From Acidimicrobiales bacterium (GTDB taxonomy: Bacteria; Actinomycetota; Actinomycetes; Mycobacteriales; QHCE01), in the NCBI GenBank assembly GCA_003243955.1, contig QHCE01000009.1, positions 5,225-69,224 on the forward strand: a stretch of 64,000 nt of DNA, given 5' to 3'. The position numbers and the translations under genes were made by a program. This document shows positions 2,192 to 51,536 of the stretch, one piece after another. Position 1 is the first letter of the stretch, and each line of letters starts with the position of its first letter. The notes under the pieces were generated by a model. The model worked only from the letters and a program-made list of their open reading frames with translations, made no database searches and was not told the origin of the DNA.

Positions 2192-2254
2192 GTTTTAAGA
2201 CTCTAGTGCTACAGGCCGGCCGCCGCTGGCACAGGTGGAACAAGCGCCGATAGC

Positions 2255-2335
2255 ACCAACCAAGGCCGCAGGAGCCGCCGTGTTCGAAAGATTCGGAAAG
2301 GCGGCTCCAGAACAGCAAACGCCGGCAGGGACCCA
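2255..2335 (+). repeat. Family-2 structured repeat, copy A (degenerate, left terminal arm missing)
   Basis: The core CCAAGGCCGCAGGAGCCGCC...GGCGGCTCC...AACGCCGGCAGGGACC is shared with 5333-5444, 46911-47006 and 51372-51476. It has an internal 9-bp stem GGAGCCGCC (2271-2279) / GGCGGCTCC (2300-2308). Confidence 0.5.
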
Positions 2336-2342
2336 TAGGGGC

Positions 2343-2552
2343 TTAGGTGAGCGCGGGTTCTTCCAGTGAGGTTGTTAGCCGACTGAAATCGTCGTTGTAT
2401 GCAGAGAGCGCCGCGGCAAGCCTGTCGTTGTCTGCTCGCAGCCGGGCAACTTCAAACCCTAAAGCCTGAACACTATCCTTGAGTCGCTGCAACTCATCGC
2501 GCAATGCTGGTTCTGTAACAGTGCCGATGTGGCCAAACAGCGCCTTTGCCAT
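2343..2552 (-). CDS. Hypothetical small coiled-coil protein (69 aa)
   Basis: ORF-track ORF with heptad-like Leu/Ala/Arg pattern (RDELQRLKDSVQALGFEVARLRADNDRLAAAL). I recognise no family. Confidence 0.4.
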   Translation of the reverse strand: MAKALFGHIGTVTEPALRDELQRLKDSVQALGFEVARLRADNDRLAAALSAYNDDFSRLTTSLEEPALT

Positions 2553-4587: not shown

Positions 4588-5310
4588 CTACTCAGCGCTC
4601 AGTAGCTGCCATGCCTGTTGCGCAGCGTGCTGTTCGGCCGCTTTCTTGCTGTTTCCACGGCCACTGCCTACCCTGCGACCGGCCACTAACAGGATCGCCT
4701 CAAAGCGCTTGGCATGGTCAGGTCCGGATTCACTGATCTCATACACCGGAACGCCTAGCCCCTGCGCGGCGGCGAGCTCCTGCAGCGACGTTTTCCAATC
4801 CAGTCCCACGCCGAGCTGTGCAGCCTGTTCAATCACGGGATCGAACAACTGATGCACGACTCGTGAGGCGGCCTCTAGCCCCAACTGGATGTAGATCGCA
4901 CCAAGCAGCGCCTCGCAGGTGTCGGCAAGAATACTGGCCTTTTCCCGGCCGCCGGTAGCCTCCTCGCCTTTGCCGAGTAGCACGTGCACGCCTAAACCGT
5001 GCTCGCCCAGCCGGCGCGCAACATCGGCCAATGCCCGCATATTCACTACCGAAGAGCGCAGCTTCGCAAGCTGTCCCTCAGGGAGTTCGGGGTAGTTGCG
5101 GTATAGCGTCGAGGTAACGACTAACCCCAGGACGGAGTCGCCTAGGAACTCCAACCGCTCATTGGTGGGCAGGCCGCCGTGCTCGTAGGCGTAGGAGCGG
5201 TGCGTGAGGGTGAGCCGCAGAAAGGGTTCGTCCAACGTCACGCCAAGCACAGCGTTCAGTTCCCGAGCAGCCGCGCGGACATGTGCGTCCACAGAGCTAG
5301 CCGTACTCAT
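4588..5310 (-). CDS. rnc: Ribonuclease III
   Basis: It carries the RNase III signature [13 protein letters not shown] plus a C-terminal dsRNA-binding region ([19 protein letters not shown]...[15 protein letters not shown]). Confidence 0.92.
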
Positions 5311-5332
5311 GACGTTATGTAAAGACAGAAGT

Positions 5333-5444
5333 GTGCGTCAATCGGTCTCTGCCAAGGCCGCAGGAGCCGCCGCCTACGAAAATGGAGCGCAGCGGAATGG
5401 GTAGGCAAGGTGACGAGAACGCCGGCAGGGGCCGATTGACGCAC
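5333..5444 (+). repeat. Family-2 structured repeat, copy B (complete)
   Basis: It has 21-nt terminal arms GTGCGTCAATCGGTCTCTGCC / GGCAGGGGCCGATTGACGCAC, which pair at 19 Watson-Crick plus 2 G.U positions on the + strand. The core is CAAGGCCGCAGGAGCCGCCGCCTAC...GTAGGCAAGGTGACGAGAACGCCGGCAGG. It fills the rpmF-rnc spacer. Confidence 0.7.
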
Positions 5445-5447
5445 GCT

Positions 5448-5630
5448 CTACGCAACTTCGAGGATCTGGCGGCCCTTATACATGCCACAGGTCTCACACA
5501 TCACATGCGAAAGTTTTGGCGCCCCACACTGCGGGCATGCACTGTAGTTGACCGGTTTGATCTTGCTGATCCAGTTCGCACGCCTCGAGCGAGTGTTCGC
5601 GCGAGACATTCGGCGTTTGGGGACGGCCAC
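5448..5630 (-). CDS. rpmF: 50S ribosomal protein L32
   Basis: MAVPKRRMSRANTRSRRANW... with CPQCG...CETCG zinc-ribbon cysteines. Confidence 0.92.
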   Translation of the reverse strand: MAVPKRRMSRANTRSRRANWISKIKPVNYSACPQCGAPKLSHVMCETCGMYKGRQILEVA

Positions 5631-17004: not shown

Positions 17005-17310
17005 TTGCGTATACCGGGGGTGGCAAACAAGAGGGCAACGGTACGGAGTAGCTCAAAGCCCCGCAACCCCCTGTGGCGTGCCTCACGAAGACTGATCTCT
17101 GGTCAGAAAAACGAACAAAAAACCACAATTTGCCCAAATGCATGAAGACCTAATGCCGCAAATAGAACAATCTGCCCCAGGCACAGTGCTGTCGACCCTA
17201 CATCCCTGCCCGACTCCTTCAACCCAGACCCCAAGTCGTCAGGCGGGCACGGCCCTCTTTTCCCACAACTTCTACGAAGTTCCCCAGATATGTTTCTCGC
17301 TCTAACCATT

Positions 17311-17450
17311 ACCCCTGGAGTCGGAGCGGAGGCGCTGCGGGCGGGGATGAGATGCAAGGCGGAGAAGGAGACGCATGTGGGCTATGCGCGACGACGACGC
17401 CGCGGATCGCCGCGTCAACCACGCTATGCGTCTGCACAATCAGGGGCTGG
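17311..17450 (+). repeat. Family-1 repeat, diverged core-only copy
   Basis: GATGCAAGGCGGAGAAGGAG-ACGCATgtgggctATGC-GCGACGACGAC-GCCGCGGatcgCCGCG...CAGGGG is collinear with the family-1 core. The hairpins keep their position but have different sequence. No terminal closing arms were recognised. Confidence 0.45.
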
Positions 17451-18339
17451 TCAATACCCCGAGGATAATGCCGATAGCAAACAAGGCCAGCAGAGTCCCC
17501 ATCACTAGCAGTGCGACCCAGCCGCGCACACCCTGCGCCTCTGGCTGTGCGGGTGCCGAATGCCCTATAATAGCACGTTCATGTAAGCCAGTGGGCGACC
17601 ACCAACTTGGCTTAGTGGAGGCCGCGAGGCGCTTCGTCGGGGGCTGAGCGGGAGGAGAGGCATCTACGAGTCGGGCCGGTGCGGCATCTGGGGGGGTGCT
17701 GCTTAAGCTGTCACGGATAGCTTGGGCCAGTACATGACTAGAAGCGCTTAGCGCACTGTATTCAGTCGAGGGGGGCGGATCGTTATCGACACTCGAATTG
17801 TTATCTACTCCCGAGACTGCAACCGAACCAAAACCTAAGGCGGATACTTCATCGGGTAGCTCGGTGGGGGAAGACTCCATAGGCTGCGCCGGCAGCACTC
17901 CACCATCACGTTGGGCGTACAACTCTTTCTCCCGCTGCCGCAGCAAAGCGGCCTCATGGCCAAGCTGCAGCCACGGCCGCCCGGCTCGTACCGCTGCTAC
18001 CCCAGTTGCGGGAACGCCGAGCACGAATAGGGCGCCCAGCAGCAGACCGATGCCGCTTTCGCCTCGAACAAAACTCATCAGCGAGCCGACTGATAGGACA
18101 ATGAGCGCGAGTGCGGCAAAGGCGAGCTTGAAGAAAACTCCGACTGACAAGGCGGAGCGCATACGCTGTCGTAGTTTGCCCAGCCGCGTGCAGATCTGCT
18201 CTAGCTCTAGCTCTACGCCCTGCGCTTGGTTGGCGCGATGCCGCCCAGCCGATGGTGTGGACTCGTCGAAAGGATCGAAATCGGCATCGAATACCGATGC
18301 ATAATACGCCGATTTTCTGGTTTGAGTGTCGCTCCTCAC
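17440..18339 (-). CDS. Hypothetical membrane protein (299 aa)
   Basis: ORF-track ORF with TM segments (VGVFFKLAFAALALIVLSVGSL; WVALLVMGTLLALFAIGIILGVL) and a Pro/Ser-rich disordered middle. I recognise no family. Confidence 0.45.
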   Translation of the reverse strand: MRSDTQTRKSAYYASVFDADFDPFDESTPSAGRHRANQAQGVELELEQICTRLGKLRQRMRSALSVGVFFKLAFAALALIVLSVGSLMSFVRGESGIGLLLGALFVLGVPATGVAAVRAGRPWLQLGHEAALLRQREKELYAQRDGGVLPAQPMESSPTELPDEVSALGFGSVAVSGVDNNSSVDNDPPPSTEYSALSASSHVLAQAIRDSLSSTPPDAAPARLVDASPPAQPPTKRLAASTKPSWWSPTGLHERAIIGHSAPAQPEAQGVRGWVALLVMGTLLALFAIGIILGVLTSP

Positions 18340-23438: not shown

Positions 23439-24407
23439 TTAGAACAACGCGTTGGACAGATTGCGGCGAGCTACGCGCACCGCCGGATCATCGGCTGGCA
23501 CAATGGATAGCAGCTCCAGCAGCCGGTTGCGGGCAAAATGACGTAGATCGTCACTCGTGTGCCGAACTACGGTGACCAGCCGCGCGAACGCCACGTCGAT
23601 CTGATTTCGTGCGAACTCTACGTCCGCGGCCTGACACTGCTGCTGCACCACGTCAGCACTGATAGCGGCGGAGGTAAGCGCCTCAGGCGCCCCTGCCGCG
23701 GCCAGCGCCTTTTCGGCATCTACTCCTTGCAGTCGGCGCAGCAGTTTTACCTGCACCAACCCGGCCAATGCGGCCTCGTCGGCAGGTGATGACGCCAAGA
23801 TCTGGTGAAACAACTCCTCAGCACCAGCTAGGTCTCCGGATTGGGCGCGTTCGGTAGCCGTGCTAAACCGTTCGTCTCCGGACGGTCCCGCTGCGGACTC
23901 AGCGAGTTGACTGCCTGCACCCCGAACTCCTAACTGGGCCGCTGCTTCCAGCACAGCAGTAAGCCAGCTACGCAGCTGGGGCTCGTCCAGAACGCCAGAG
24001 AAGCCGTCTATTGGCTGCGCCCCAGCAATCGCCATCACCATGGGCACGCTGGAAATTCTAAATGCACGCGCCAGTCCCGGACTAGCTTCGATGTCGATTT
24101 TTGCCAGTAACCACGCTCCTTGTGCAAGCACCGCTTGCCGCTCCAACACTGGGCTGAGCCGCTTGCAAGGCTCACACCACTGCGCCCAAAAATCCAGCAC
24201 TACTGGAACTCGTTGTGAGGCTTCTACGACATCAGTCTGAAATGACTGCTCAGTGACGGTGAGTACAAACTCCGACTGCGCACCTGTGGCCGGCTGTGGA
24301 GTGGGCTTGGCTAACGATGACAGGTCAAGCGCACGCGCCCACGACGATGGTGTGGCACGAAGGCCGGCATCGGGATAAGTCTGTGGTGAATTTTTGGAGT
24401 ACTGCAT
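23439..24407 (-). CDS. Thioredoxin-domain / TPR-like co-chaperone (YbbN/CnoX-like)
   Basis: A thioredoxin fold with the CxxC motif WAQWCEPCK is followed by a helical TPR-like C-terminal half. Confidence 0.7.
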   Translation of the reverse strand: MQYSKNSPQTYPDAGLRATPSSWARALDLSSLAKPTPQPATGAQSEFVLTVTEQSFQTDVVEASQRVPVVLDFWAQWCEPCKRLSPVLERQAVLAQGAWLLAKIDIEASPGLARAFRISSVPMVMAIAGAQPIDGFSGVLDEPQLRSWLTAVLEAAAQLGVRGAGSQLAESAAGPSGDERFSTATERAQSGDLAGAEELFHQILASSPADEAALAGLVQVKLLRRLQGVDAEKALAAAGAPEALTSAAISADVVQQQCQAADVEFARNQIDVAFARLVTVVRHTSDDLRHFARNRLLELLSIVPADDPAVRVARRNLSNALF

Positions 24408-24562
24408 ACGCCTAGTCTGTCACTTCACGCACCAGATCCCGCCAAGCCCTCTAGGGTAAGGAAAAGCGGAATTGAGCACAGCAGCACTGAATCGTGACCA
24501 CCTGTACGAGTTTGAACGATATACCGCGATTTGAGATACCAGAGGCAGACGGAGCGCCATTA

Positions 24563-24723
24563 AGAGGTCGCGCGGGTTGGTCGTTCGTTGCGAGGTGGTG
24601 CCTGGTCGAGGATGGCAAGGCGGAGGAGGAGTTCATGCTGGATGCATGGGCGACGACGACAACACAGCCAGGCGAAGTGCCAGGGGACACCGCAGTAGAA
24701 CAGCACCAATCCGCGCGACCTCT
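24563..24723 (+). repeat. Family-1 structured repeat, copy 1
   Basis: The closing helix AGAGGTCGCGCGGGTTGGT / ACCAATCCGCGCGACCTCT is 19 bp with one G.U. The core is GGCAAGGCGGAGGAGGAG, hairpin CATGC-tggat-GCATG, GGCGACGACGAC, ...GTGCCAGGGGACACCGCAGTAGAACAGC. It is near-identical to 41057-41232. Confidence 0.78.
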
Positions 24724-24745
24724 CAGCAAGAAAGGCGGCTTGCGC

Positions 24746-26374
24746 ATGGCCGTCAAAAAACTGAAGGCCGCCAGGGCCACAGTCTGCGGCAATAGTCATG
24801 GGCTCGTAGGCGCCGCAGTCGTGCTAAGCCTACTGGCCGTACTGTCCATGCTCACCGGTTGCGGTGCTGCTCATCGCGCATCTGCGACCAAAGATTTCGC
24901 CGCGATTACTGTTCCCACCGGAATCCCGACACCGGCGCAAGCAACGCTGCGCCATGGCAGCTATACCCAAACCCGGAGTGGACTGCACATACGCGTAGAA
25001 CTACTACATCGCATCGCCTTAGGTGACATCAGCGGCGCTGCCGCGCCAGACACGGCAGCGCTTGTGCAGACCAGCCTGAACTTGGATTCAGCCAGTGCAG
25101 CACTGCGTTTCCTCAGCGTCATTGTGCTGCGCAGCGCACCCCACAATCGGCCTCGCCAGTGGCAGAGTGCCCCTATCGTCAGTAACGCCCTCCCGCTCGG
25201 CGCGGGTGCGCGGTTAAAATCCATCGCGGTCAAACCGGCTGAGCTCCTGCACGGGCCTACACTGCGGGTGAGCTCAACCCAAATCATCGTTGGCTACGAG
25301 CTACCTGACAGCGAACACGTCGAGCAGATGCAACCCCGGCGGCTCACCGCAACACTGGTCGGAAACACGCTCGTTCCGCTAGAGGACGTGTCGACACACG
25401 AGCATTCCATGTATCGGGTAGCAGCACCTACCGTGCTGGCACTTAGCGCTTTAGGTGGAAAAGATCATCAACCCGATGGTGCCGGAGAAACACACGTGCA
25501 CGGTTTCGTGGCATACGGCGGAAACCAGCGCTACGCCATCTCGGTGCAGAAGGGATATCAGCTGCGGATCGACACCGCGGCGAGTTCGCCATCAAGCTCA
25601 CAGCAGCTACGGCTGAGTGTGAGTGGAGACGACGGCACTGTGCTGCAGAATGCTGGTAGAAGCGCATCGAACTACAGCAGCCCGGTGCCCAGCACCCAGA
25701 ACTATCAGCTCGAAGTCTTCAGCGCCACCGCCGATCCGGCCAGCTACATTCTCACCGTGAACGTGACCGCACCTTCCCCATCACCCTCGAGCGGGAAAAT
25801 TCTGCCCGAGCGTGCCACGAGCGGCAAAATACTACATCTGACATTTGACGACGGGCCTAATCCGCGTTTCACCGGTCAAATCCTCGACGTGCTCGCGAAG
25901 TACGGCGCAAAAGCAACGTTCTTCGTAGTGGGAAAGAACGTCGTAGAGCACCCGGAATGGATTGAGCGAGAGCTCCAATCCGGACATACCGTCGCCAACC
26001 ACAGTTATAGCCACCCTCGGTTGACGAATATCAGCCAACAGGCCTTCGATGCCGAAATTGACCAGACAGCGCAAGCCATCGGTCCGCATGGGGCCAAGTG
26101 TTTAAGGCCGCCCTATGGAGCCGTGGATGCACAAGTGCGGACCCGAGCTGCCGACAAGGGCTTAGCCGTGGTGCTCTGGGACGTAGACACCCAAGATTGG
26201 CGGCGGGGACCACCCGAGCAGATCGCGCAATCGGTGATCGACGGAGCCGAGACCGGCAACATCATTTTGATGCACGACGGCGGTGGTAACCGCGACAACA
26301 CCGTAAAAGCGCTCGACATAGCGCTAGCGAAGTTGTCCGCGCAAGGCTGGAGTTTCCAACCGATCTGTACATGA
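24746..26374 (+). CDS. Lipoprotein with C-terminal NodB-type polysaccharide deacetylase domain
   Basis: It has a signal peptide with lipobox (LSMLTGC) and NodB motifs LTFDDGP, HSYSHP and LMHDGG. The track ORF starts at 24494 only because the upstream repeat is open in frame. Confidence 0.8.
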   Translation: MAVKKLKAARATVCGNSHGLVGAAVVLSLLAVLSMLTGCGAAHRASATKDFAAITVPTGIPTPAQATLRHGSYTQTRSGLHIRVELLHRIALGDISGAAAPDTAALVQTSLNLDSASAALRFLSVIVLRSAPHNRPRQWQSAPIVSNALPLGAGARLKSIAVKPAELLHGPTLRVSSTQIIVGYELPDSEHVEQMQPRRLTATLVGNTLVPLEDVSTHEHSMYRVAAPTVLALSALGGKDHQPDGAGETHVHGFVAYGGNQRYAISVQKGYQLRIDTAASSPSSSQQLRLSVSGDDGTVLQNAGRSASNYSSPVPSTQNYQLEVFSATADPASYILTVNVTAPSPSPSSGKILPERATSGKILHLTFDDGPNPRFTGQILDVLAKYGAKATFFVVGKNVVEHPEWIERELQSGHTVANHSYSHPRLTNISQQAFDAEIDQTAQAIGPHGAKCLRPPYGAVDAQVRTRAADKGLAVVLWDVDTQDWRRGPPEQIAQSVIDGAETGNIILMHDGGGNRDNTVKALDIALAKLSAQGWSFQPICT

Positions 26375-34432: not shown

Positions 34433-34786
34433 CTACAGCGCGAGCGCCTGTGCTCGACGCTTGACCTCACGTGCTTTAGGACCGTACAGCGCATCCACTG
34501 GCTTGCCGCCCAGCGATTCATCCGGGGTAAACAGCCAGCGCAGCATCTCTTCTCGCGAGAACCCGTCATCCCGCAGCACGATAAACAACCCCGCAAGGTG
34601 AGCGGCAACGTGTTCATCCGTGGGTACCAGCTCGCCAGGGATATACACCACTCCATCTCGGCGTAGCGCAAAAAGCTCACCCTCGGCAATCATGCGATGC
34701 ACCCGCGTGATGCGCACATTGAGCCGCTGCGCCACGGCAGGAACGGTAAGCCATTCGTTAGAGGAGATCAGCTGTTCGTCAGGCAT
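34433..34786 (-). CDS. Rv2175c-like winged-HTH DNA-binding protein
   Basis: It contains the HTH-like segment WLTVPAVAQRLNVRITRVHRMIAEGELFALRRDGVVYIP and is divergent from the Ser/Thr kinase. An alternative GTG start is at 34825. Confidence 0.6.
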   Translation of the reverse strand: MPDEQLISSNEWLTVPAVAQRLNVRITRVHRMIAEGELFALRRDGVVYIPGELVPTDEHVAAHLAGLFIVLRDDGFSREEMLRWLFTPDESLGGKPVDALYGPKAREVKRRAQALAL

Positions 34787-34835
34787 GATGAGAAACCGTA
34801 CACTGGCCTTCGTGAACGTAACCACGAGCGACCCG

Positions 34836-36917
34836 ATGCAGGGGATGTTGCTCGAAAAGCGCTACCGAATTCGCGGCAAAATAGCCCAGGGCGGCATGGC
34901 CTCGGTGTATGAGGCCTTCGACGAACGACTTGAGCGCCTGGTCGCCGTAAAGATCATGCGTCCGGAGTACGCAACCGACGCAGTGTTCGCCAGCAGGTTC
35001 ATGCGTGAAGCCCGATCGACCGCGGCGCTCAATCACCCACACATCGTCGCAGTGTTCGATCAGGGTCACCACGACAACACCATGTTCCTGGTTATGGAGA
35101 AAGTAGATGGCACCACGTTGCGCGGGGTGCTGAAGCAGCGAGTGCGGCTGAACCTCGCCGAGGCGATCGGCGTAATAGAGCCTGTACTTGCGGCGCTAGC
35201 CCAAGCACACGAGCGGGGCATCGCGCACCGCGACGTGAAACCAGAAAATGTTCTGATCTCCTCGACTGGAATCGTGAAAGTCGCGGACTTCGGCCTTGCC
35301 CGCGCGGTAGAGAGCACTCATCAACTCACCAGCCGCAACACGCTGCTAGGAACCGTCGCCTACTTGGCTCCCGAGCAGATCACCAACGCTGAATCTGATG
35401 CCCGAAGCGACGTCTATGCCGTCGGAATTATGCTATATGAAATGCTCACCGGGGTTAAGCCGCATCAGGGAAGCTCGGCGATGCAGGTCGCTTACCAACA
35501 TGTGAACTCCGATGTGCCGCCACCATCAGACGTTGTGGCACAGCTTCCACCACAGTTCGACGAGCTTGTTGCCGCTGCCACTCGGCGCGACCGCACTCAG
35601 CGGCTGGCTTCCGCCGGGGTTTTCCTCACCGCGCTACGTCAAACTCGGCTTGCTCTAGGCATCACTCCATTGCTTGTTCGGGCCGCTGATGAAGTGAACG
35701 GCGCGACTGAAGCTACGCCACCAGACCCACGATCGCGGGAAAGTGCCTCCGGACTGCCTCCTGCCGCCTCAGGTCAGCAGGAGTCCGCAGAGCCGCAGGA
35801 GGAGCAATCTACTGCTCCACGAAACGATCCCGGCCAGAGCCGGAAAGCACCCAGTACGGGCACCTCAGTGATGCCGCCGCTGGGCCAGCAGCAACTAGGC
35901 GGCTCACTCACAGGAATGCATCGCGGAACCGCCGCCCCAGAGATTTATCAGCCGCCCGAGATGCCATCCGAGCCTCCGCCGCTGGCATCCTCGGCAGAGG
36001 GCGCGCGGCAGGAAAAAGATAAAAAACGCAGACTCCTCATGACCGCGTTGGCCGCGGCAGTGGTGCTGGTACTGCTAGCTGGGGGGTTGCTGTGGTGGTT
36101 AGGCGGGCGCAACGACGTTACCGTTCCCCAGTTCATCGGGTTGGATAAAACCGCGGCGGAAAGCGTTGCTAAAAAAGCGGACATCAAGGTTAGCTACGGC
36201 ACATCCAAATTTTCTGATTCGGTGAGTGAAAACGTCGTATTAGAGCAGAAGCCCGGTGCAAAACAACGCGTGGGTTCTGGCGACACCATCACGCTGGTGC
36301 TCTCGGGTGGGCCAAGGGTCCGCAGCGTACCTCAGGTGCGCGGCAAGACTCGCGACGAAGCTACAAAACTGCTGGAAGCCGAGCATTTCACGCCCGTTGT
36401 CAGCGAAGAAGAGAGCCAAGACATACCCAAAGACAGTGCAATCCACACAGATCCTGGCGAAGGTAGGAAACTTAACGTCGACTCGCAGATCCGGTTAGTA
36501 ATCAGCAAGGGGCGCGGATCTACCCAAGTTCCTGATGTGGTGGGTCTAAGTAGGGCTGACGCCGTAGCTTTGCTCGCCGAGCACGGACTTAAAGCTACGT
36601 TCACTGAAGAAACAACCGACAATGACCCGAATAGCAATGCCAGAATCGACAGTGTGCTCCGGCAACAGACGGCACCTAACTCCACAGTAGAAAAGGGCAG
36701 CGAAGTTGTGCTGGTGATCTCTGGTGGCCCCGCTCAGGTTCAAGTACCCAACGTCCGCGGCTTGGATTGCGCACAGGCACGTGAGCTTCTACGCGGCGCG
36801 GGATTGAAAGCCAACTGTCAAGGTGCAAGTAGGGGCAAAGTCTTTTTCCAGTCACCCAACGCTGGTAGTACAGCAGAGCGAAAAAGCTCCGTGGCACTGT
36901 TCACGTTTCCCATTTAA
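34836..36917 (+). CDS. Ser/Thr protein kinase with four C-terminal PASTA repeats (PknL/PknB-like)
   Basis: It has Hanks motifs GGMASVYEA, VAVKIM, HRDVKPENVL, DFGLA and APE, a TM segment (LLMTALAAAVVLVLLAGGLLWWL), then four PASTA-like units. I chose ATG 34836. Confidence 0.88.
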   Translation: MQGMLLEKRYRIRGKIAQGGMASVYEAFDERLERLVAVKIMRPEYATDAVFASRFMREARSTAALNHPHIVAVFDQGHHDNTMFLVMEKVDGTTLRGVLKQRVRLNLAEAIGVIEPVLAALAQAHERGIAHRDVKPENVLISSTGIVKVADFGLARAVESTHQLTSRNTLLGTVAYLAPEQITNAESDARSDVYAVGIMLYEMLTGVKPHQGSSAMQVAYQHVNSDVPPPSDVVAQLPPQFDELVAAATRRDRTQRLASAGVFLTALRQTRLALGITPLLVRAADEVNGATEATPPDPRSRESASGLPPAASGQQESAEPQEEQSTAPRNDPGQSRKAPSTGTSVMPPLGQQQLGGSLTGMHRGTAAPEIYQPPEMPSEPPPLASSAEGARQEKDKKRRLLMTALAAAVVLVLLAGGLLWWLGGRNDVTVPQFIGLDKTAAESVAKKADIKVSYGTSKFSDSVSENVVLEQKPGAKQRVGSGDTITLVLSGGPRVRSVPQVRGKTRDEATKLLEAEHFTPVVSEEESQDIPKDSAIHTDPGEGRKLNVDSQIRLVISKGRGSTQVPDVVGLSRADAVALLAEHGLKATFTEETTDNDPNSNARIDSVLRQQTAPNSTVEKGSEVVLVISGGPAQVQVPNVRGLDCAQARELLRGAGLKANCQGASRGKVFFQSPNAGSTAERKSSVALFTFPI

Positions 36918-37090
36918 GAGCGCTCGGTAATTGATGCTGTTCTACTGCGGTGTCCCCTGGCACTTGTGTCTCGGCTGTAGCCGAGGATATTGTCGTCGTC
37001 GCCCATACCTTCTCGGTATGAACTCCTCCTCCGCCTTGCCATACTCGACCAGGCACCACCTCGCTACGAACGATCAAATGCCGAACACTC
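36918..37090 (-). repeat. Family-1 structured repeat, copy 2 (inverted orientation, diverged)
   Basis: It is the reverse complement of the family-1 core, with rewritten but still pairing stems. It begins on the nucleotide after the kinase stop codon. Confidence 0.72.
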
Positions 37091-37154
37091 TAACCGGCCG
37101 CAATCGTGAGCTAAGCCACTTCCCGTTGCATAATTCTGATCTTAGGGTCACTTT

Positions 37155-37172
37155 AGTTAGGTAAACCTAACT
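37155..37172. promoter_or_regulatory. Palindromic operator candidate upstream of bfd-bfr (iron-regulator box-like)
   Basis: AGTTAGGTAAACCTAACT is a perfect 8+2+8 palindrome containing TTAGGT/ACCTAA half-sites like DtxR/IdeR boxes, but with different spacing. It ends 15 nt before GTG 37187. Confidence 0.4.
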
Positions 37173-37186
37173 CAGTCGGGTGGACC

Positions 37187-37387
37187 GTGTACATCTGTAT
37201 CTGCGCCCAAGTCCGCGAATGCGAACTCCGCGATGTCATCACCGCCGGTGCGCGCAACGTTGATGACATCGCGCAAGCCTGCGGCGCAGGAACCGGTTGC
37301 GGCTCCTGCACACGGCGAGTGCAAGCCGTGCTCGGCAAGTTAGCCCTACCTGAGCTCAAGAGCCTGTGCCCGGCAGAACTACGCTGA
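37187..37387 (+). CDS. bfd: Bacterioferritin-associated ferredoxin (BFD-like [2Fe-2S])
   Basis: MYICICAQV...CGAGTGCGSC cysteine pattern, directly upstream of bfr. Confidence 0.85.
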   Translation: MYICICAQVRECELRDVITAGARNVDDIAQACGAGTGCGSCTRRVQAVLGKLALPELKSLCPAELR

Positions 37388-37447
37388 ACCCACTATGCGG
37401 CTGCCGGTGCTCGCCGGTGCCGAGCACTAGTGATCAGGGACGGTGTC

Positions 37448-37927
37448 ATGCAGGGCGATCCAGGAGTCTTAGAATTTCTCAACGAACAACTCACCGCGGA
37501 GCTCACCGCGATCAATCAATACTTCTTACATGCAAAAATGCAAGAAAACTGGGGTCTGGGCAAACTTGCGGCGCACACCAAAGCTGAATCACTGGATGAA
37601 ATGCGGCATGCCGAGATCATTACCGACCGCATCCTCTTCCTCGACGGACTTCCGAACTATCAGCGGCTATTTGCTGTGCGGATCGGCGAAACAGTGGCTG
37701 AGCAGTTCAGCTGCGACATGCTGATCGAGCAGGAGGCCATCGACCGGCTGCGCCGAGCGATCGACCACTCCCGATCAGTAGGTGACGTAACCTCGGCGAA
37801 GTTGTTCGAAGACATCCTCGCCGACGAGGAGCATCACATCGATTACCTGGAAACTCAGCTGGAGCTGATCGCTAAGCTCGGCGAACAGCTGTACCTAAGC
37901 AGCTTAGTGGCGCATCCCACCGAGTAG
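37448..37927 (+). CDS. bfr: Bacterioferritin
   Basis: MQGDPGVLEFLNEQLTAELTAINQYFLHAKM...EMRHAEIITDRILFLDG...EEHHIDYLETQL. ATG 37448 lies inside the track ORF. Confidence 0.92.
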   Translation: MQGDPGVLEFLNEQLTAELTAINQYFLHAKMQENWGLGKLAAHTKAESLDEMRHAEIITDRILFLDGLPNYQRLFAVRIGETVAEQFSCDMLIEQEAIDRLRRAIDHSRSVGDVTSAKLFEDILADEEHHIDYLETQLELIAKLGEQLYLSSLVAHPTE

Positions 37928-37960
37928 TCCTCTTCTACTTCACGGTGGTTACCACCGCGC

Positions 37961-38275
37961 TTAGCCGCGAAACGGTACCGCTGTGAGCTTAATGAGTAAT
38001 TCGCTGTTGTCGGCTGCCGCGGCGCGGTTCGGTTTGTGCACCCCACAGCGCTGACACTCGTGCAGCACCACGTAACGGCCTCGCTCATAGCGAGCCGCTA
38101 CTGGACGCATCAGGCCACCACATTCAGCGTCGCGGTCTCCTGGAGCGTTGTCTACGTGGCGTGACCATAGGCACGCGGAGCAATGGTTCGTGAAACCCGA
38201 GCCGACTACGCTGCGCCCGCACGCGCCGCAGATGAAATCCTCGACACGGCGCTGAAACCGCGGCCCCGTAGTCAT
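37961..38275 (-). CDS. RNHCP domain zinc-ribbon protein
   Basis: FICGACGRSV...FTNHCSACLWSRHVD...CGGLM...HECQRCG. Confidence 0.7.
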   Translation of the reverse strand: MTTGPRFQRRVEDFICGACGRSVVGSGFTNHCSACLWSRHVDNAPGDRDAECGGLMRPVAARYERGRYVVLHECQRCGVHKPNRAAAADNSELLIKLTAVPFRG

Positions 38276-38288
38276 CCTGATACCTCTG

Positions 38289-39620
<1,332 letters not shown>

Positions 39621-39647
39621 CTACAGTCTGAGCCGTTGGGCGAACGC

Positions 39648-40673
39648 TCACCCAAAGAAGACCTCAGCTTCGGCCAAACGCTCCATCGGAACCGTCTTGA
39701 GCTCTCGCGTAGCTTCCTCCAACGGAACCCGGATGATGTCAGTACCGCGCAACGCAACCATCATGCCCCAGTTCCGGTCATGCGCGGCGTCGATGGCGTG
39801 CAGGCCAAATCGGGTGGCCAACACCCGATCGTAGGCGGTAGGTGAGCCACCACGCTGCACATGCCCAAGCACTACCGCGCGCGACTCTTTACCAGTCCGT
39901 TCCTCAATGGTTTGGGCAAGCCACTGGCCAATTCCACCGAGCCGAACGTGACCAAACGCATCCTTCTCCCCGCTGAGCAGCACCTCTGCTCCTTGGGCAG
40001 GCAAGGCACCTTCGGCTACCACCAGGATAGGCGAGTACTGGGTGGCGAACCGGCTCTCCACGTGCTTGATCACCATGTCTAGATCGAACGGACGTTCCGG
40101 CACCAAGATCACGTTCGCGCCTCCAGCAAGCCCGGCATGCAATGCTATCCATCCAGCGTGGCGCCCCATTACTTCCACCACCAGCGCGCGGTGATGGCTC
40201 TCTGCCGTGGTGTGCAACCGGTCGATGGCTTCCATACACACCGTCACCGCAGTGTCGAAACCGAAGGTGTAGTCCGTGGCGCCTAAGTCGTTGTCAATAG
40301 TCTTAGGCACACCGATGACCGGCAAACCCTCGTCAGTGAGGCGCTTGGCCACGCCAAGGGTGTCTTCCCCGCCGATAGCGATCAACGCGTCAATACCCGC
40401 GGTACTCACATTGCGTTTAATTCGATCCGCGCCGCCATCAACCTTGAACGGATTGGTCCTTGATGAGCCCAAAATTGTGCCACCCCGCGGCAAAATGCCC
40501 CGTACTTGCGGCACACCCAACGGCGTAGTGTTTAGCTCCAACGGCCCCCGCCAACCATCACGAAACCCAACGAACTCGTGACCATAAACGCCTACGCCTT
40601 TACGAACGACCGCTCGAATGACCGCGTTGAGCCCCGGACAGTCGCCACCACCCGTGAGTACCCCGATGCGCAT
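39648..40673 (-). CDS. pfkA: 6-phosphofructokinase
   Basis: MRIGVLTGGGDCPGLNAVIRAVV...IGGEDTLGVA...PKTIDNDL...MGRHAGWIAL. Confidence 0.92.
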   Translation of the reverse strand: MRIGVLTGGGDCPGLNAVIRAVVRKGVGVYGHEFVGFRDGWRGPLELNTTPLGVPQVRGILPRGGTILGSSRTNPFKVDGGADRIKRNVSTAGIDALIAIGGEDTLGVAKRLTDEGLPVIGVPKTIDNDLGATDYTFGFDTAVTVCMEAIDRLHTTAESHHRALVVEVMGRHAGWIALHAGLAGGANVILVPERPFDLDMVIKHVESRFATQYSPILVVAEGALPAQGAEVLLSGEKDAFGHVRLGGIGQWLAQTIEERTGKESRAVVLGHVQRGGSPTAYDRVLATRFGLHAIDAAHDRNWGMMVALRGTDIIRVPLEEATRELKTVPMERLAEAEVFFG

Positions 40674-40776
40674 GAATCCGTTACTCCTTCATAGTTAGGT
40701 CTAGACCGATATGGATCGATACCGCACAGCTTGCCACTAACGTCGATTACGAGTTCCGCCGGGCGTTAAAGGGTAT

Positions 40777-40946
40777 CTAGTGTTGTGTAATCGATATCGT
40801 CGTGTGTGTGCTGGGGCTCAGGCGGCGCCTCGCGGCGTTGTCGAAATTTCGGAGGTAGGACACCGCTACCTGAAAATTCTCCGCCTTGCGATCCATCCAC
40901 CTGAACAACCAGCACCCAGAACGGAACATCGATTACACAACACTAG
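40777..40946. other. 170-nt long imperfect hairpin with perfect 19-bp termini (single copy). It could be a 6S-like ncRNA or a MITE-like palindrome.
   Basis: The termini are CTAGTGTTGTGTAATCGAT (40777-40795) / ATCGATTACACAACACTAG (40928-40946). The inner helices are GTGCTGG/CCAGCAC and TCAGG/CCTGA, and the apex is GGTAG-gacaccg-CTACC centred at 40862. Confidence 0.5.
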
Positions 40947-41056
40947 TGCCGTGCCGGGCGGCGGGAAAATTCCGCAGAGCTCGAAAAAAACATGCCCCCA
41001 AGTTTCGCCAAGCTCACGTCAGCTGAGTAACAAATCTGCAAGGATCACTACCACTA

Positions 41057-41232
41057 AGAGGTCGCGCGGGTTGGTCGTTCGTAGCGAGGGCGAAGTTGGC
41101 TAGCGCAGTCCTGGTCGAGGATGGCAAGGCGGAGGAGGAGTTCATGCTGGATGCATGGGCGACGACGACAACACAGCCAGGCGAAGTGCCAGGGGACACC
41201 GCAGTAGAACAGCACCAATCCGCGCGACCTCT
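41057..41232 (+). repeat. Family-1 structured repeat, copy 3
   Basis: It has the same termini and right half as copy 1. The left arm carries a different or inserted segment (GCGAGGGCGAAGTTGGCTAGCGCAGTCCTGG). Confidence 0.78.
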
Positions 41233-41314
41233 CAGCTAAGAGTGTCCAACCTAATTCATGCGGCGCGCATCTGTCGGATAGTGATTGCCGCCAACGGGTG
41301 CGAAAGGATCGGGT

Positions 41315-46807: not shown

Positions 46808-46910
46808 GCCTGCCCCTATCCGCCTCCTGACAACTTCATAAAAGTTGCTGCCCTGTTAGAGCGTCCACCACTGAGCCGATTGTCGCTGATCTAACTCGAT
46901 CAACGAACGT

Positions 46911-47006
46911 GGCTCTGCCAAGGCCGCAGGAGCCGCCGGCCTACGAAGAAAGTGGAGCAAGGCGGCTCAAAACATGTAGAACGACGGCAGGGACCGATTG
47001 GTGCGC
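46911..47006 (+). repeat. Family-2 structured repeat, copy C
   Basis: GGCTCTGCCAAGGCCGCAGGAGCCGCCGGCCTACGAAG...GGCGGCTC...GTAGAACGACGGCAGGGACCGATTGGTGCGC. It lies between convergent genes and ends 3 nt before the hemW stop. Confidence 0.6.
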
Positions 47007-47008
47007 GC

Positions 47009-50993: not shown

Positions 50994-51368
50994 ATGACAG
51001 CAAAACGGGAACAACCGCAGAAGGCGCAGATAACTTTTGGGAAGTTCGAGAACGTTGACCTGAGAGTGGCGCGTGTGACGTCAGCACCGCTAGCTGAGGG
51101 TACTCGGTTTCCTTGTCGAGTGATCACACTTGAGCTTGGCCATCTAGGGCAGCGTACCTCGGTCGGGCAGTACGCACTGCATACCGAAGCTGAACTTGTT
51201 GGCAAAAACGTTGTTGCCTGCATCAATCTGGGCCAACGAGAGATGGGTTCATACACATCTGAGGCTTTGGTATTGGGCGCCCCGCATCCCCAGAGCCCCG
51301 AGGACCAGTCCCAGGCCACCCCACTGTTCGTCTCGCCAGATGCTACTGCGGGCGACCAAGTCTTTTAA
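50994..51368 (+). CDS. tRNA-binding domain protein (CsaA-like)
   Basis: ITFGKFENVDLRVARVTSAPLAEGTRFPCRVITLELGHLGQRTSVGQ. I chose ATG 50994. Confidence 0.72.
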   Translation: MTAKREQPQKAQITFGKFENVDLRVARVTSAPLAEGTRFPCRVITLELGHLGQRTSVGQYALHTEAELVGKNVVACINLGQREMGSYTSEALVLGAPHPQSPEDQSQATPLFVSPDATAGDQVF

Positions 51369-51371
51369 CTC

Positions 51372-51476
51372 AGAGGGTGTGCCAAATAGACCCCTGCCGG
51401 CGTTCTCGTCGCCTTGTCTACCTTCGTAGGCGGCGGCTCCTGCGGCCTTGGCAGATGCCCTATTGGCGCACCCTCT
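51372..51476 (-). repeat. Family-2 structured repeat, copy D (inverted orientation)
   Basis: Its terminal arms are AGAGGGTGTGCCAAATAGACCCCTGCC / GGCAGATGCCCTATTGGCGCACCCTCT. The core is the reverse complement of copy B. It lies 60 nt downstream of the antitoxin-like gene, on that gene's strand. Confidence 0.7.
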
Positions 51477-51536
51477 GACCATCCCCTACGAGCACCCCTA
51501 GCGGGTCAAGGTATTGCCTGCAAGATTCTGGCGGGC

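Follow-up and report, generated by a model that had tools for sequence, protein, structure and literature searches.

A structured repeat of Actinomycetota is probably a non-autonomous DNA transposon with a strand-specific fold and a conserved core

In a 64,000-nt stretch of the genome of an Acidimicrobiales bacterium (contig QHCE01000009.1 of assembly GCA_003243955.1, positions 5,225 to 69,224; hereafter the window, with positions counted from its first letter), an earlier note made from the letters alone had pointed out a structured repeat, here termed family 1. Our analysis indicates that this repeat is, in all likelihood, a non-autonomous DNA transposon, that is, a miniature inverted-repeat transposable element (MITE), which belongs to a large superfamily in Actinomycetota and is likely moved in trans by a DDE transposase of the IS5 family. 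The element is multicopy and recently mobile, as demonstrated by reciprocal filled and empty sites. Its core, conserved above the inverted repeats, and its folding, selected on one strand, are an unexplained and testable peculiarity.

Results

The locus L001, from a metagenome-assembled genome (MAG) of Mycobacteriales, is 91-95% identical to 31.7-38.8 kb of the window and differs from it at two reciprocal presence/absence sites. The first is the site of family-1 copy 3 (36918..37090, minus strand), where L001 is empty and reads ...CGACCAC-TTA-AATGGGG..., with a single TTA, while the window is filled and reads ...TTA-GAGTGTTCGG...CCGAGCGCTC-TTA-AATGGG..., the element ends being GAGTG...CGCTC. 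Therefore, this insertion carries a 3-bp target-site duplication, TTA, at 37091-37093 and 36915-36917; on the plus strand, 36915-36917 is the TAA stop codon of a PknB-like kinase gene (34620-36917). At the second site (38287..38291) the window is empty and holds the TAG stop codon of a DAHP-synthase-like gene (38289-39611, minus strand), and L001 has an element copy of its own at this TAG stop (L001:531-693).

Three types of ends were distinguished. Types A and B are bounded as TA-G(G/T)G...C(C/A)C-TA, often within CTAG, with TA on both sides in at least 29 of the 49 classifiable type A/B copies. Type C, which is the window type, is bounded as TNA-GAG...CTC-TNA, and identical TNA (TAA or TTA) was found on both sides of seven type C copies, with TCA/TCA in a further locus, L117. 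Terminal complementarity extends over 14-25 bp in most of 108 elements, and the element length ranges from 145 to 190 bp, about 160-175 bp being typical. Since it is small, non-coding and multicopy, has terminal inverted repeats and a target-site duplication, and is polymorphic for presence and absence, the repeat falls within the definition of a MITE. The earlier note had set its structured repeat against young MITE insertions with target-site duplications and no structure-preserving variation; the first half of that description holds, as the filled and empty sites reveal, and the second does not, as described below.

About half of the elements touch a stop codon, and in annotated Streptomyces plasmids the coding sequences called by PGAP terminate exactly at the TA flank. 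Because the duplicated TNA, or TA together with the first G of the element (TAG), remakes the stop codon, the host gene is left unharmed. The element thus jumps into TA (types A and B) or TNA (type C) and duplicates those 2-3 bp; in these GC-rich hosts the target is often a stop codon, and the remade stop allows the insertion to be tolerated.

The entire element is an imperfect palindrome, of which one strand folds as a rod that averages some 60-65 base pairs. Copy 1 (24564..24722, plus strand) folds as one long rod with a minimum free energy (MFE) of -85.5 kcal/mol and z = -6.9, which, together with the pairing-preserving variation described next, bears out the claim of a structured element. 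The parts that had been listed for family 1 were all seen, namely a closing helix of 19 bp that contains one G.U, helices formed by GGUG/CCUGG, the purine box GGAGGAGGAG, an AUG-bearing hairpin and the tract GACGACGAC.

A covariance model was built from 53 elements, and 106 sequences were aligned to it. In this structural alignment, pairing was kept in 93.2% of the cells, compared with 64% after shuffling and 30-48% with slid partners; compensatory double changes were counted in 1071 cells, and helix 1 was paired in 95% across the sequences. RNAalifold on a MAFFT alignment gave the same pairing picture. Pairing is thus preserved by variation along the whole rod, beyond the terminal repeats, and inverted DNA repeats alone could yield variation of this kind.

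The two strands are not equivalent in their folds. Among 85 distinct elements, the sense strand was more stable in 85/85 with both RNA and DNA parameters, the means being -112.2 kcal/mol for the sense and -88.6 kcal/mol for the other strand with RNA parameters, and -56.8 versus -48.6 kcal/mol with DNA parameters; for copy 1, the antisense RNA fold reaches -65.3 kcal/mol. In the MFE folds of these elements (RNA parameters), 509 G.U pairs were present on the sense strand versus 150 on the other, and in the structural alignment 313 G.U cells stood against 34 A.C cells (about 9:1), the ratio being about 8:1 even in the terminal helix. Equal numbers of G.U and A.C are expected from random decay of a double-stranded palindrome, and a strand-specific fold is not predicted by a repeat that acts purely as double-stranded DNA.

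Extra hairpins were observed at recurrent points in L020, L041, L055, L126, L129 and window copy 3 (about 36960-36990). Two such insertion points recur, one just after GACGACGAC(AA) and the other within the apical hairpin, with a GGGGGTACCTCCCAGCGGTAGCTGGGGGA-like insert common to L126 and L129 at the latter point; the element may thus contain modular sites for insertion. Separately, both arms of type-A elements (e.g. L010:3301-3464, L018 and L062) carry GGATCTT/AAGATCC. A GATC(A/T)T motif has been reported for the Streptomyces nucleoid protein Gbn (PMC9239103), and the match of the arms to it may be due to chance.

The core, which is asymmetric and caps the rod, has the layout GC-AAGGCGG(AGG)n, variable hairpin, (GAC)n-AACGCCGC: its 5' side is GC-AAGGCGG-AGGAGGAG, its 3' side is GCGACGACGAC-AACGCCGC, and the variable hairpin between them covaries. 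In copy 1 it lies at 24615..24669 (plus strand) and consists of GCAAGGCGGAGGAGGAG (24615-24631), the apical hairpin (24632-24649) and GCGACGACGACAACACAGCC (24650-24669). RNAalifold placed a lone G-C pair at every third nucleotide of the core, and these lone pairs are invariant or near-invariant in the 106 sequences. As modelled, the dinucleotides between them would face each other as 5'-GA-3'/3'-AG-5', forming tandem G.A mismatches, in place of which the opposite strand would show C.U/U.C.

Three observations support this register of lone pairs and tandem G.A: a change from G:C to C:G in L124, L126 and the family-2 elements of the window (AAGGCCG with GACGAGAAC, at the sixth letter of each), a matched additional G and additional C in L122, and a core with one G.A unit per side in the fourth window copy. 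L122, L124 and L126 hold copies found through the 5' arm only. An alternative register, with a GGCG/CGCC helix and an AA bulge as in the MFE fold of L010, is less likely, since the window copies read ACAC there and since the 102:146 G:C to C:G covariation fits the other register. The number of GGA/GAC units ranges from 0 to 3 or 4. One core is common to three end types within the window itself, and its unpaired or non-canonical nucleotides are conserved across orders.

A core scan (AAGGCGGAGRAGGAG-N10-30-GACGACGAC, one genome per species) yielded at least 119 loci, mostly in Actinomycetota, with several genomes carrying more than one. The matches listed include Nocardia, Micromonospora, Streptomyces, Kribbella, Streptosporangium, Rhodococcus, Jiangella, Pseudonocardia and many actinobacterial MAGs; outside Actinomycetota, they include two from Byssovorax (myxobacterial) and one from Gemmatimonadota. 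With one exception, the listed loci share a single architecture and fold back over about 160-170 nt. The exception (L085:989-1040) is the start of a response-regulator gene (GGAGGAG-AG-ATG...LLLIDDD) and was rejected as a false positive; the core pattern can arise from a Shine-Dalgarno sequence followed by a DDD-coding stretch. A further diverged member (L017:4029-4210) was obtained by covariance-model search.

A BLAST search with the 5' arm matched 26 Streptomyces plasmid records, BLASTN with a type-A copy reached two Streptomyces plasmids only, through the core, and BLASTN with a window copy against phages and plasmids gave no match. The sole match to the core pattern in the viral collection lies in a giant-virus MAG contig of IMG/VR (L123:6565-6614); it covers model positions 60-110 only (30 bits), a partial element, and may represent contamination or chance.

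The flanks of the loci are almost never homologous, even within a genus, and orthologous conservation of insertion sites within genera was looked for and not seen. Only 1/87 elements lies inside an open reading frame (ORF). Orientation relative to the neighbouring genes is random (same/same 21, opposite/opposite 19, convergent 21, divergent 12), the neighbours are functionally unrelated and many copies stand downstream of stop codons; a riboswitch or other cis-regulator was rejected on these grounds. Since orientation to host transcription is random, the strand constraint would have to act on the propagation of copies and not on a function in cis for the host. With regard to GC skew in the flanks, the sense strand lies on the C-rich strand in 48 cases versus 29 (p = 0.03), a marginal result from one of several tests.

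The repeat also fragments short-read assemblies. In a second assembly of this organism the breaks fall exactly within copies 2 and 3, and its 4.3-kb contig L121 (GCA_050999955.1), which equals window 36965-41236, ends inside copies 3 and 2.

When the covariance model was run over the window with filters off, four full family-1 copies, one decayed copy and four family-2 elements were counted in 64 kb, and the density in the source MAG is roughly one copy per 15 kb. The three full copies of the earlier note were all found where it had placed them; its total of about eight repeats missed a fourth full copy, described below. Within the window, three occurrences of sub-motifs 20 and 26 nt long were counted, against 0.00-0.01 expected by chance.

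Copy 1, with the ends GAGG...CCTC, is flanked by TAA (24561-24563) on the left and TCA (24723-24725) on the right, and was matched by the model at 24558-24728 (plus strand) with 121.6 bits. It lies in a divergent intergenic region between a thioredoxin/TPR gene (minus strand) and a polysaccharide deacetylase gene (plus strand). Its AUG at 24635, 3 nt past GGAGGAGGAG, is in frame with the deacetylase ORF, whose annotated-type start is at 24746; an N-terminally extended deacetylase isoform could be produced from it, and the arrangement is probably a coincidence.

Copy 2 (41058..41231, plus strand) has the same flanking trinucleotides, TAA (41055-41057) and TCA (41232-41234), and gave 98.4 bits at 41052-41237 (plus strand). 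Copies 1 and 2 are 100% identical across 127 nt of their right-hand part (24601-24727 = 41110-41236), and a 15-nt insertion in copy 2 disrupts one helix. The right flank of copy 2 (41232-41250) reads TCAGCTAAGAGTGTCC, within which TAAGAGTGT looks like the left end of copy 3 (TTAGAGTGTTCGG), as if part of a further element had survived there or the insertion had taken place beside an older end. L122:19930-19945 shows a comparable layout, with the remnant of a right end directly adjoining the TA of a complete copy.

Copy 3 was matched at 36912-37096 (minus strand) with 79.8 bits. Its identity, in blocks, is 86-97%, and it has an additional hairpin inserted after GACGACGACAA. Relative to copy 1, its closing helix and apical hairpin have changed in a compensatory way, and the non-Watson-Crick pairs are G.U when read in the sense of the element.

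The fourth full copy, 40780..40943 on the minus strand, has a different type of end, C-TA-GTGTTGTG...CACAACAC-TA-G (CTAGTG...CACTAG), and gave 71.3 bits (E = 8.8e-12) at 40775-40948 (minus strand). Its core is shrunk to GCAAGGCGGAG...GACAACGCCGC. It was also picked up as an inverted repeat, with a fold of -89.5 kcal/mol in the sense versus -77.1 kcal/mol in the antisense direction, and it stands about 100 nt from copy 2, 5'-to-5', in the intergenic region between PFK and a 360-aa gene. A copy at about 17.35 kb, which had been read as core-only, is present and turned out to be a decayed full-length element (17300..17459, plus strand; 38.7 bits, E = 1.4e-5), in which the core GCAAGGCGGAGAAGGAG-hairpin-GCGACGACGAC is retained and the arms are eroded.

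The family-2 elements are shorter fold-backs with the core CTGCC-AAGGCCGCAGGAG...GACGAGAACGCC-GGCAG. Element a (2196..2345, plus strand) has the core, a longer internal hairpin and indistinct ends. Element b (5333..5447, plus strand), a shorter fold-back with the ends GTGCGTCAATCGG.../...CCGATTGACGCAC and a related core, folds with -63.8 kcal/mol in the sense versus -54.0 kcal/mol in the antisense direction. Element c (46893..47008, plus strand) has the core between degraded arms, and element d (51369..51476, minus strand) has the ends AGAGGGTG...CACCCTCT, like the window type of family 1. Two of them are weakly recognised by the family-1 model: b at 5289-5480 (plus strand; 20.3 bits, E = 0.04) and d at 51345-51503 (minus strand; 26.9 bits, E = 0.0025). 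The shared core AAGGC(G/C)G...GA(C/G)AACGCC, the similar ends and this cross-detection therefore support the proposal that the two families are sub-families within one system. GC skew is negative throughout the window (1-64000), which therefore lies within a single replichore.

Discussion

The filled and empty sites, the target-site duplications and the terminal inverted repeats identify the kind of element, and the question of what moves it turns on its ends and targets. Mobilisation would occur in trans by a DDE transposase, most likely one of the IS5 family (IS427/IS1031-like). The ends of the element begin GAG... or GGG..., are GAGCCTGTT-like and resemble those of the IS5 family; these ends, together with the TA, TNA or CTAG target, point to a resemblance to the IS427 and IS1031 groups. 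IS5-family elements with CTAG direct repeats have been reported from mycobacteria (PMC9241763), a 3-nt insertion site has been described as common among IS1031-group elements, and ISLxx6 of Leifsonia, assigned to the IS427 group, shows such a 3-nt insertion site (PMC2516522). A derivative of IS630/Tc1-mariner was rejected, as the strict TA target of that group does not fit type C, which duplicates 3 bp (TTA here; TAA, TTA or TCA elsewhere); types A and B alone are compatible with TA duplication.

Several points weigh against this explanation. An autonomous element with the same ends was sought in about 1 Mb of fetched loci and in the plasmid collection and was not found: inverted repeats that begin with G(A/G)G and are spaced 0.6-2.5 kb apart amounted to noise only, terminal 9-11-mers outside the known copies were chance matches with no partner insertion sequence, and the 5'-arm BLAST search returned more MITE copies and no transposase. 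The IS5-family assignment itself draws on the resemblance of targets and ends. The site filled in L001 lacks a clean duplication (TGA versus TAG), and its flanks have diverged. Double-stranded cut-and-paste by a DDE enzyme leaves unexplained both the preservation of a fold on one strand and a core that is better conserved than the inverted repeats. The structural evidence has its own biases: an alignment fitted to the covariance model leans towards the model structure, and, as the core motif was the route to most loci, the apparent conservation of the core is inflated, a bias that is corrected only partly by the arm-ascertained Streptomyces set and the end types of the window. Moreover, a derivative of about 75 nt on a plasmid of Streptomyces sp. 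NBC_01591 (L130:300-380) has both arms of the Streptomyces subfamily and no core.

A more novel reading is a hairpin-dependent transposon, in which a folded single strand is recognised by the mobilising machinery or by a conserved actinobacterial factor; we regard it as doubtful. Tentatively, the MITE reading itself may also involve a step at which the sense strand is single-stranded, be it read-through RNA or single-stranded DNA (ssDNA), and at which it is decided which copies multiply; the core might there be a recognition module for a host or transposition factor.

A structure-dependent mobile element with a new mechanism, in which the folded sense strand (ssDNA or RNA) is copied or integrated, appears rather improbable. 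The enzyme would read the tandem-G.A core and not the inverted repeats, in the style of attC, REP-RAYT or IS200-IS605 ends, and yet produce a TA/TNA duplication. In line with such a mechanism are the greater stability of the sense strand in every element under both parameter sets, the excess of G.U over A.C, terminal repeats included, the retention of the core across subfamilies that differ in their ends and duplication lengths, the failure to find a matching DDE partner in the fetched loci or plasmids, and the weak bias of the sense strand to the C-rich flank strand. The last of these is marginal, however, as stated above; fixed 2-3 bp duplications and precise inverted ends are a hallmark of DDE transposition, the core-less derivative in L130 has the same arms, and no candidate enzyme was identified.

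We consider it quite improbable that the copies are free-standing structured noncoding RNA genes or cis-regulatory RNAs, conserved for a cellular RNA function and multiplied by duplication. Extensive covariation, a strand-specific and G.U-rich fold and the conservation of unpaired or non-canonical core nucleotides across orders would all fit such RNAs. With Rfam 15, no matches at the gathering threshold were obtained over the whole 64-kb window (tRNAs and riboswitches included) or in 12 loci of other genera, and a search of 24400-24900 at E <= 10 brought up nothing of relevance; the repeat matches no Rfam family, in agreement with the earlier note, and it could be an undescribed class. The target-site duplication and the reciprocal empty sites nevertheless show transposition, so MITE insertions make the case against a dedicated RNA gene or a riboswitch-like element, and the random orientation to flanking genes, the lack of gene association and the unconserved insertion sites even within genera argue in the same direction. 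A scan of the copies for sigma-70-like promoters and intrinsic terminators, not tuned to actinobacterial promoters, detected none. A full-length RNA would need an outside promoter, since the element pairs its 5' end with its 3' end.

A palindromic element of the REP/BIME type or derived from IS200/IS605 (PATE), moved by an HUH tyrosine transposase (RAYT or TnpA), is very improbable and already largely refuted by the duplication: it would share the intergenic location, the multiple copies and the strand-specific hairpin, but elements of that kind have neither target-site duplications, here 3 bp, nor long terminal inverted repeats, and in the present case the ends lack a conserved GTAG-type tetranucleotide and the whole 160-nt unit is a single fold-back and not two subterminal hairpins. 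The idea of a small peptide, with GGAGGAGGAG as a ribosome-binding site followed by the AUG of the hairpin, is scarcely credible: ATG, GTG or TTG does occur 3-12 nt past the purine box in 54/85 elements, the AUG of copy 1 being in frame with the deacetylase ORF, but 31/85 have no start codon, the frames differ between subfamilies (RRRQRR, TTTT, DDDN) and mostly leave the element without a stop, the start codon sits in a stem that varies by compensatory changes, and neither start codon nor reading frame is conserved, so that the reading was rejected.

A MITE moved in trans by an IS5-family transposase is thus the reading we prefer, and it has practical consequences. The element is unannotated in RefSeq records, breaks short-read assemblies and shapes the intergenic regions of many Actinomycetota, including antibiotic-producing genera and linear plasmids. 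Landing on the TA of a stop codon and rebuilding the stop offers a simple route to tolerance where TA is rare. Searches for RNA motifs in Actinobacteria will keep matching the repeat, and the covariance model is useful as a mask. In the host, REP, ERIC and Correia elements suggest by analogy that a transcribed copy might act as a strong hairpin where genes end.

Conservation of the core above that of the inverted repeats, and the roughly ninefold excess of G.U over A.C, are unexpected for double-stranded cut-and-paste. If these features are mechanistic, they would imply that IS5-like transposition has a single-strand step so far overlooked, or that some host factor reads a tandem-G.A helix of (GGA)n/(GAC)n. 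A transposon that depends on a hairpin and yet makes TA/TNA duplications would, if true, be a combination not described so far.

No description of the element was found in the searchable literature, including the Breaker-lab surveys of 26 and 50 genomes. The mobile/repeat sequence candidates of that laboratory (MRSC, e.g. MRSC-65-2) are alike in being structured, multicopy, inconsistently oriented and covarying, and a part in transposition, as DNA or as RNA, has been suggested for them; MRSC-65-2 differs in having a UYCCGG repeat instead of the core, and the motif strings of the element are absent from one supplementary file of that report (PMC11109978). Of the systems closest in kind, which are these candidates, the Correia and ERIC elements and the IS5-family or Tourist-type MITEs, none has the sequence of the element.

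The Correia elements (NEMIS) of Neisseria are likewise intergenic MITEs with long terminal inverted repeats and TA duplication. They measure about 100-155 bp, occur in hundreds of copies and have a functional central site, and their transcripts fold as a long hairpin that affects mRNA processing. They belong to another phylum and have no sequence similarity to the actinobacterial element; their centre is an IHF-binding DNA site, whereas that of the actinobacterial element is an asymmetric, purine-rich tandem-G.A core with a strand-specific fold, and the latter element also has subfamilies with a 3-bp TNA duplication. The ERIC/IRU sequences of enterobacteria are imperfect palindromes of about 127 bp, present across genera and intergenic in either orientation, and their internal sequence, too, is better conserved than expected for a selfish repeat; the effects of their RNA hairpins depend on orientation. 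ERIC/IRU differ in host range and sequence, ERIC is not known to have a (GGA)n/(GAC)n core, and the mobility of the actinobacterial element is shown directly by its filled and empty sites.

With the IS5 family (IS427, IS1031) and its MITEs, the element shares a TA, TNA or CTAG target and a duplication of 2-4 bp, and eukaryotic PIF/Harbinger-Tourist MITEs duplicate TAA or TTA. It differs in that no transposase partner with matching ends was found for it, and the IS5 family is not known to require a folded single strand or an internal conserved core. REP/BIME-RAYT systems and integron attC sites resemble the element in being imperfect palindromes in which selection acts on the fold of one strand over sequence. 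Those systems, however, make no target-site duplication and are read as ssDNA by HUH enzymes or tyrosine recombinases, whereas the actinobacterial element has DDE-like ends and a target-site duplication.

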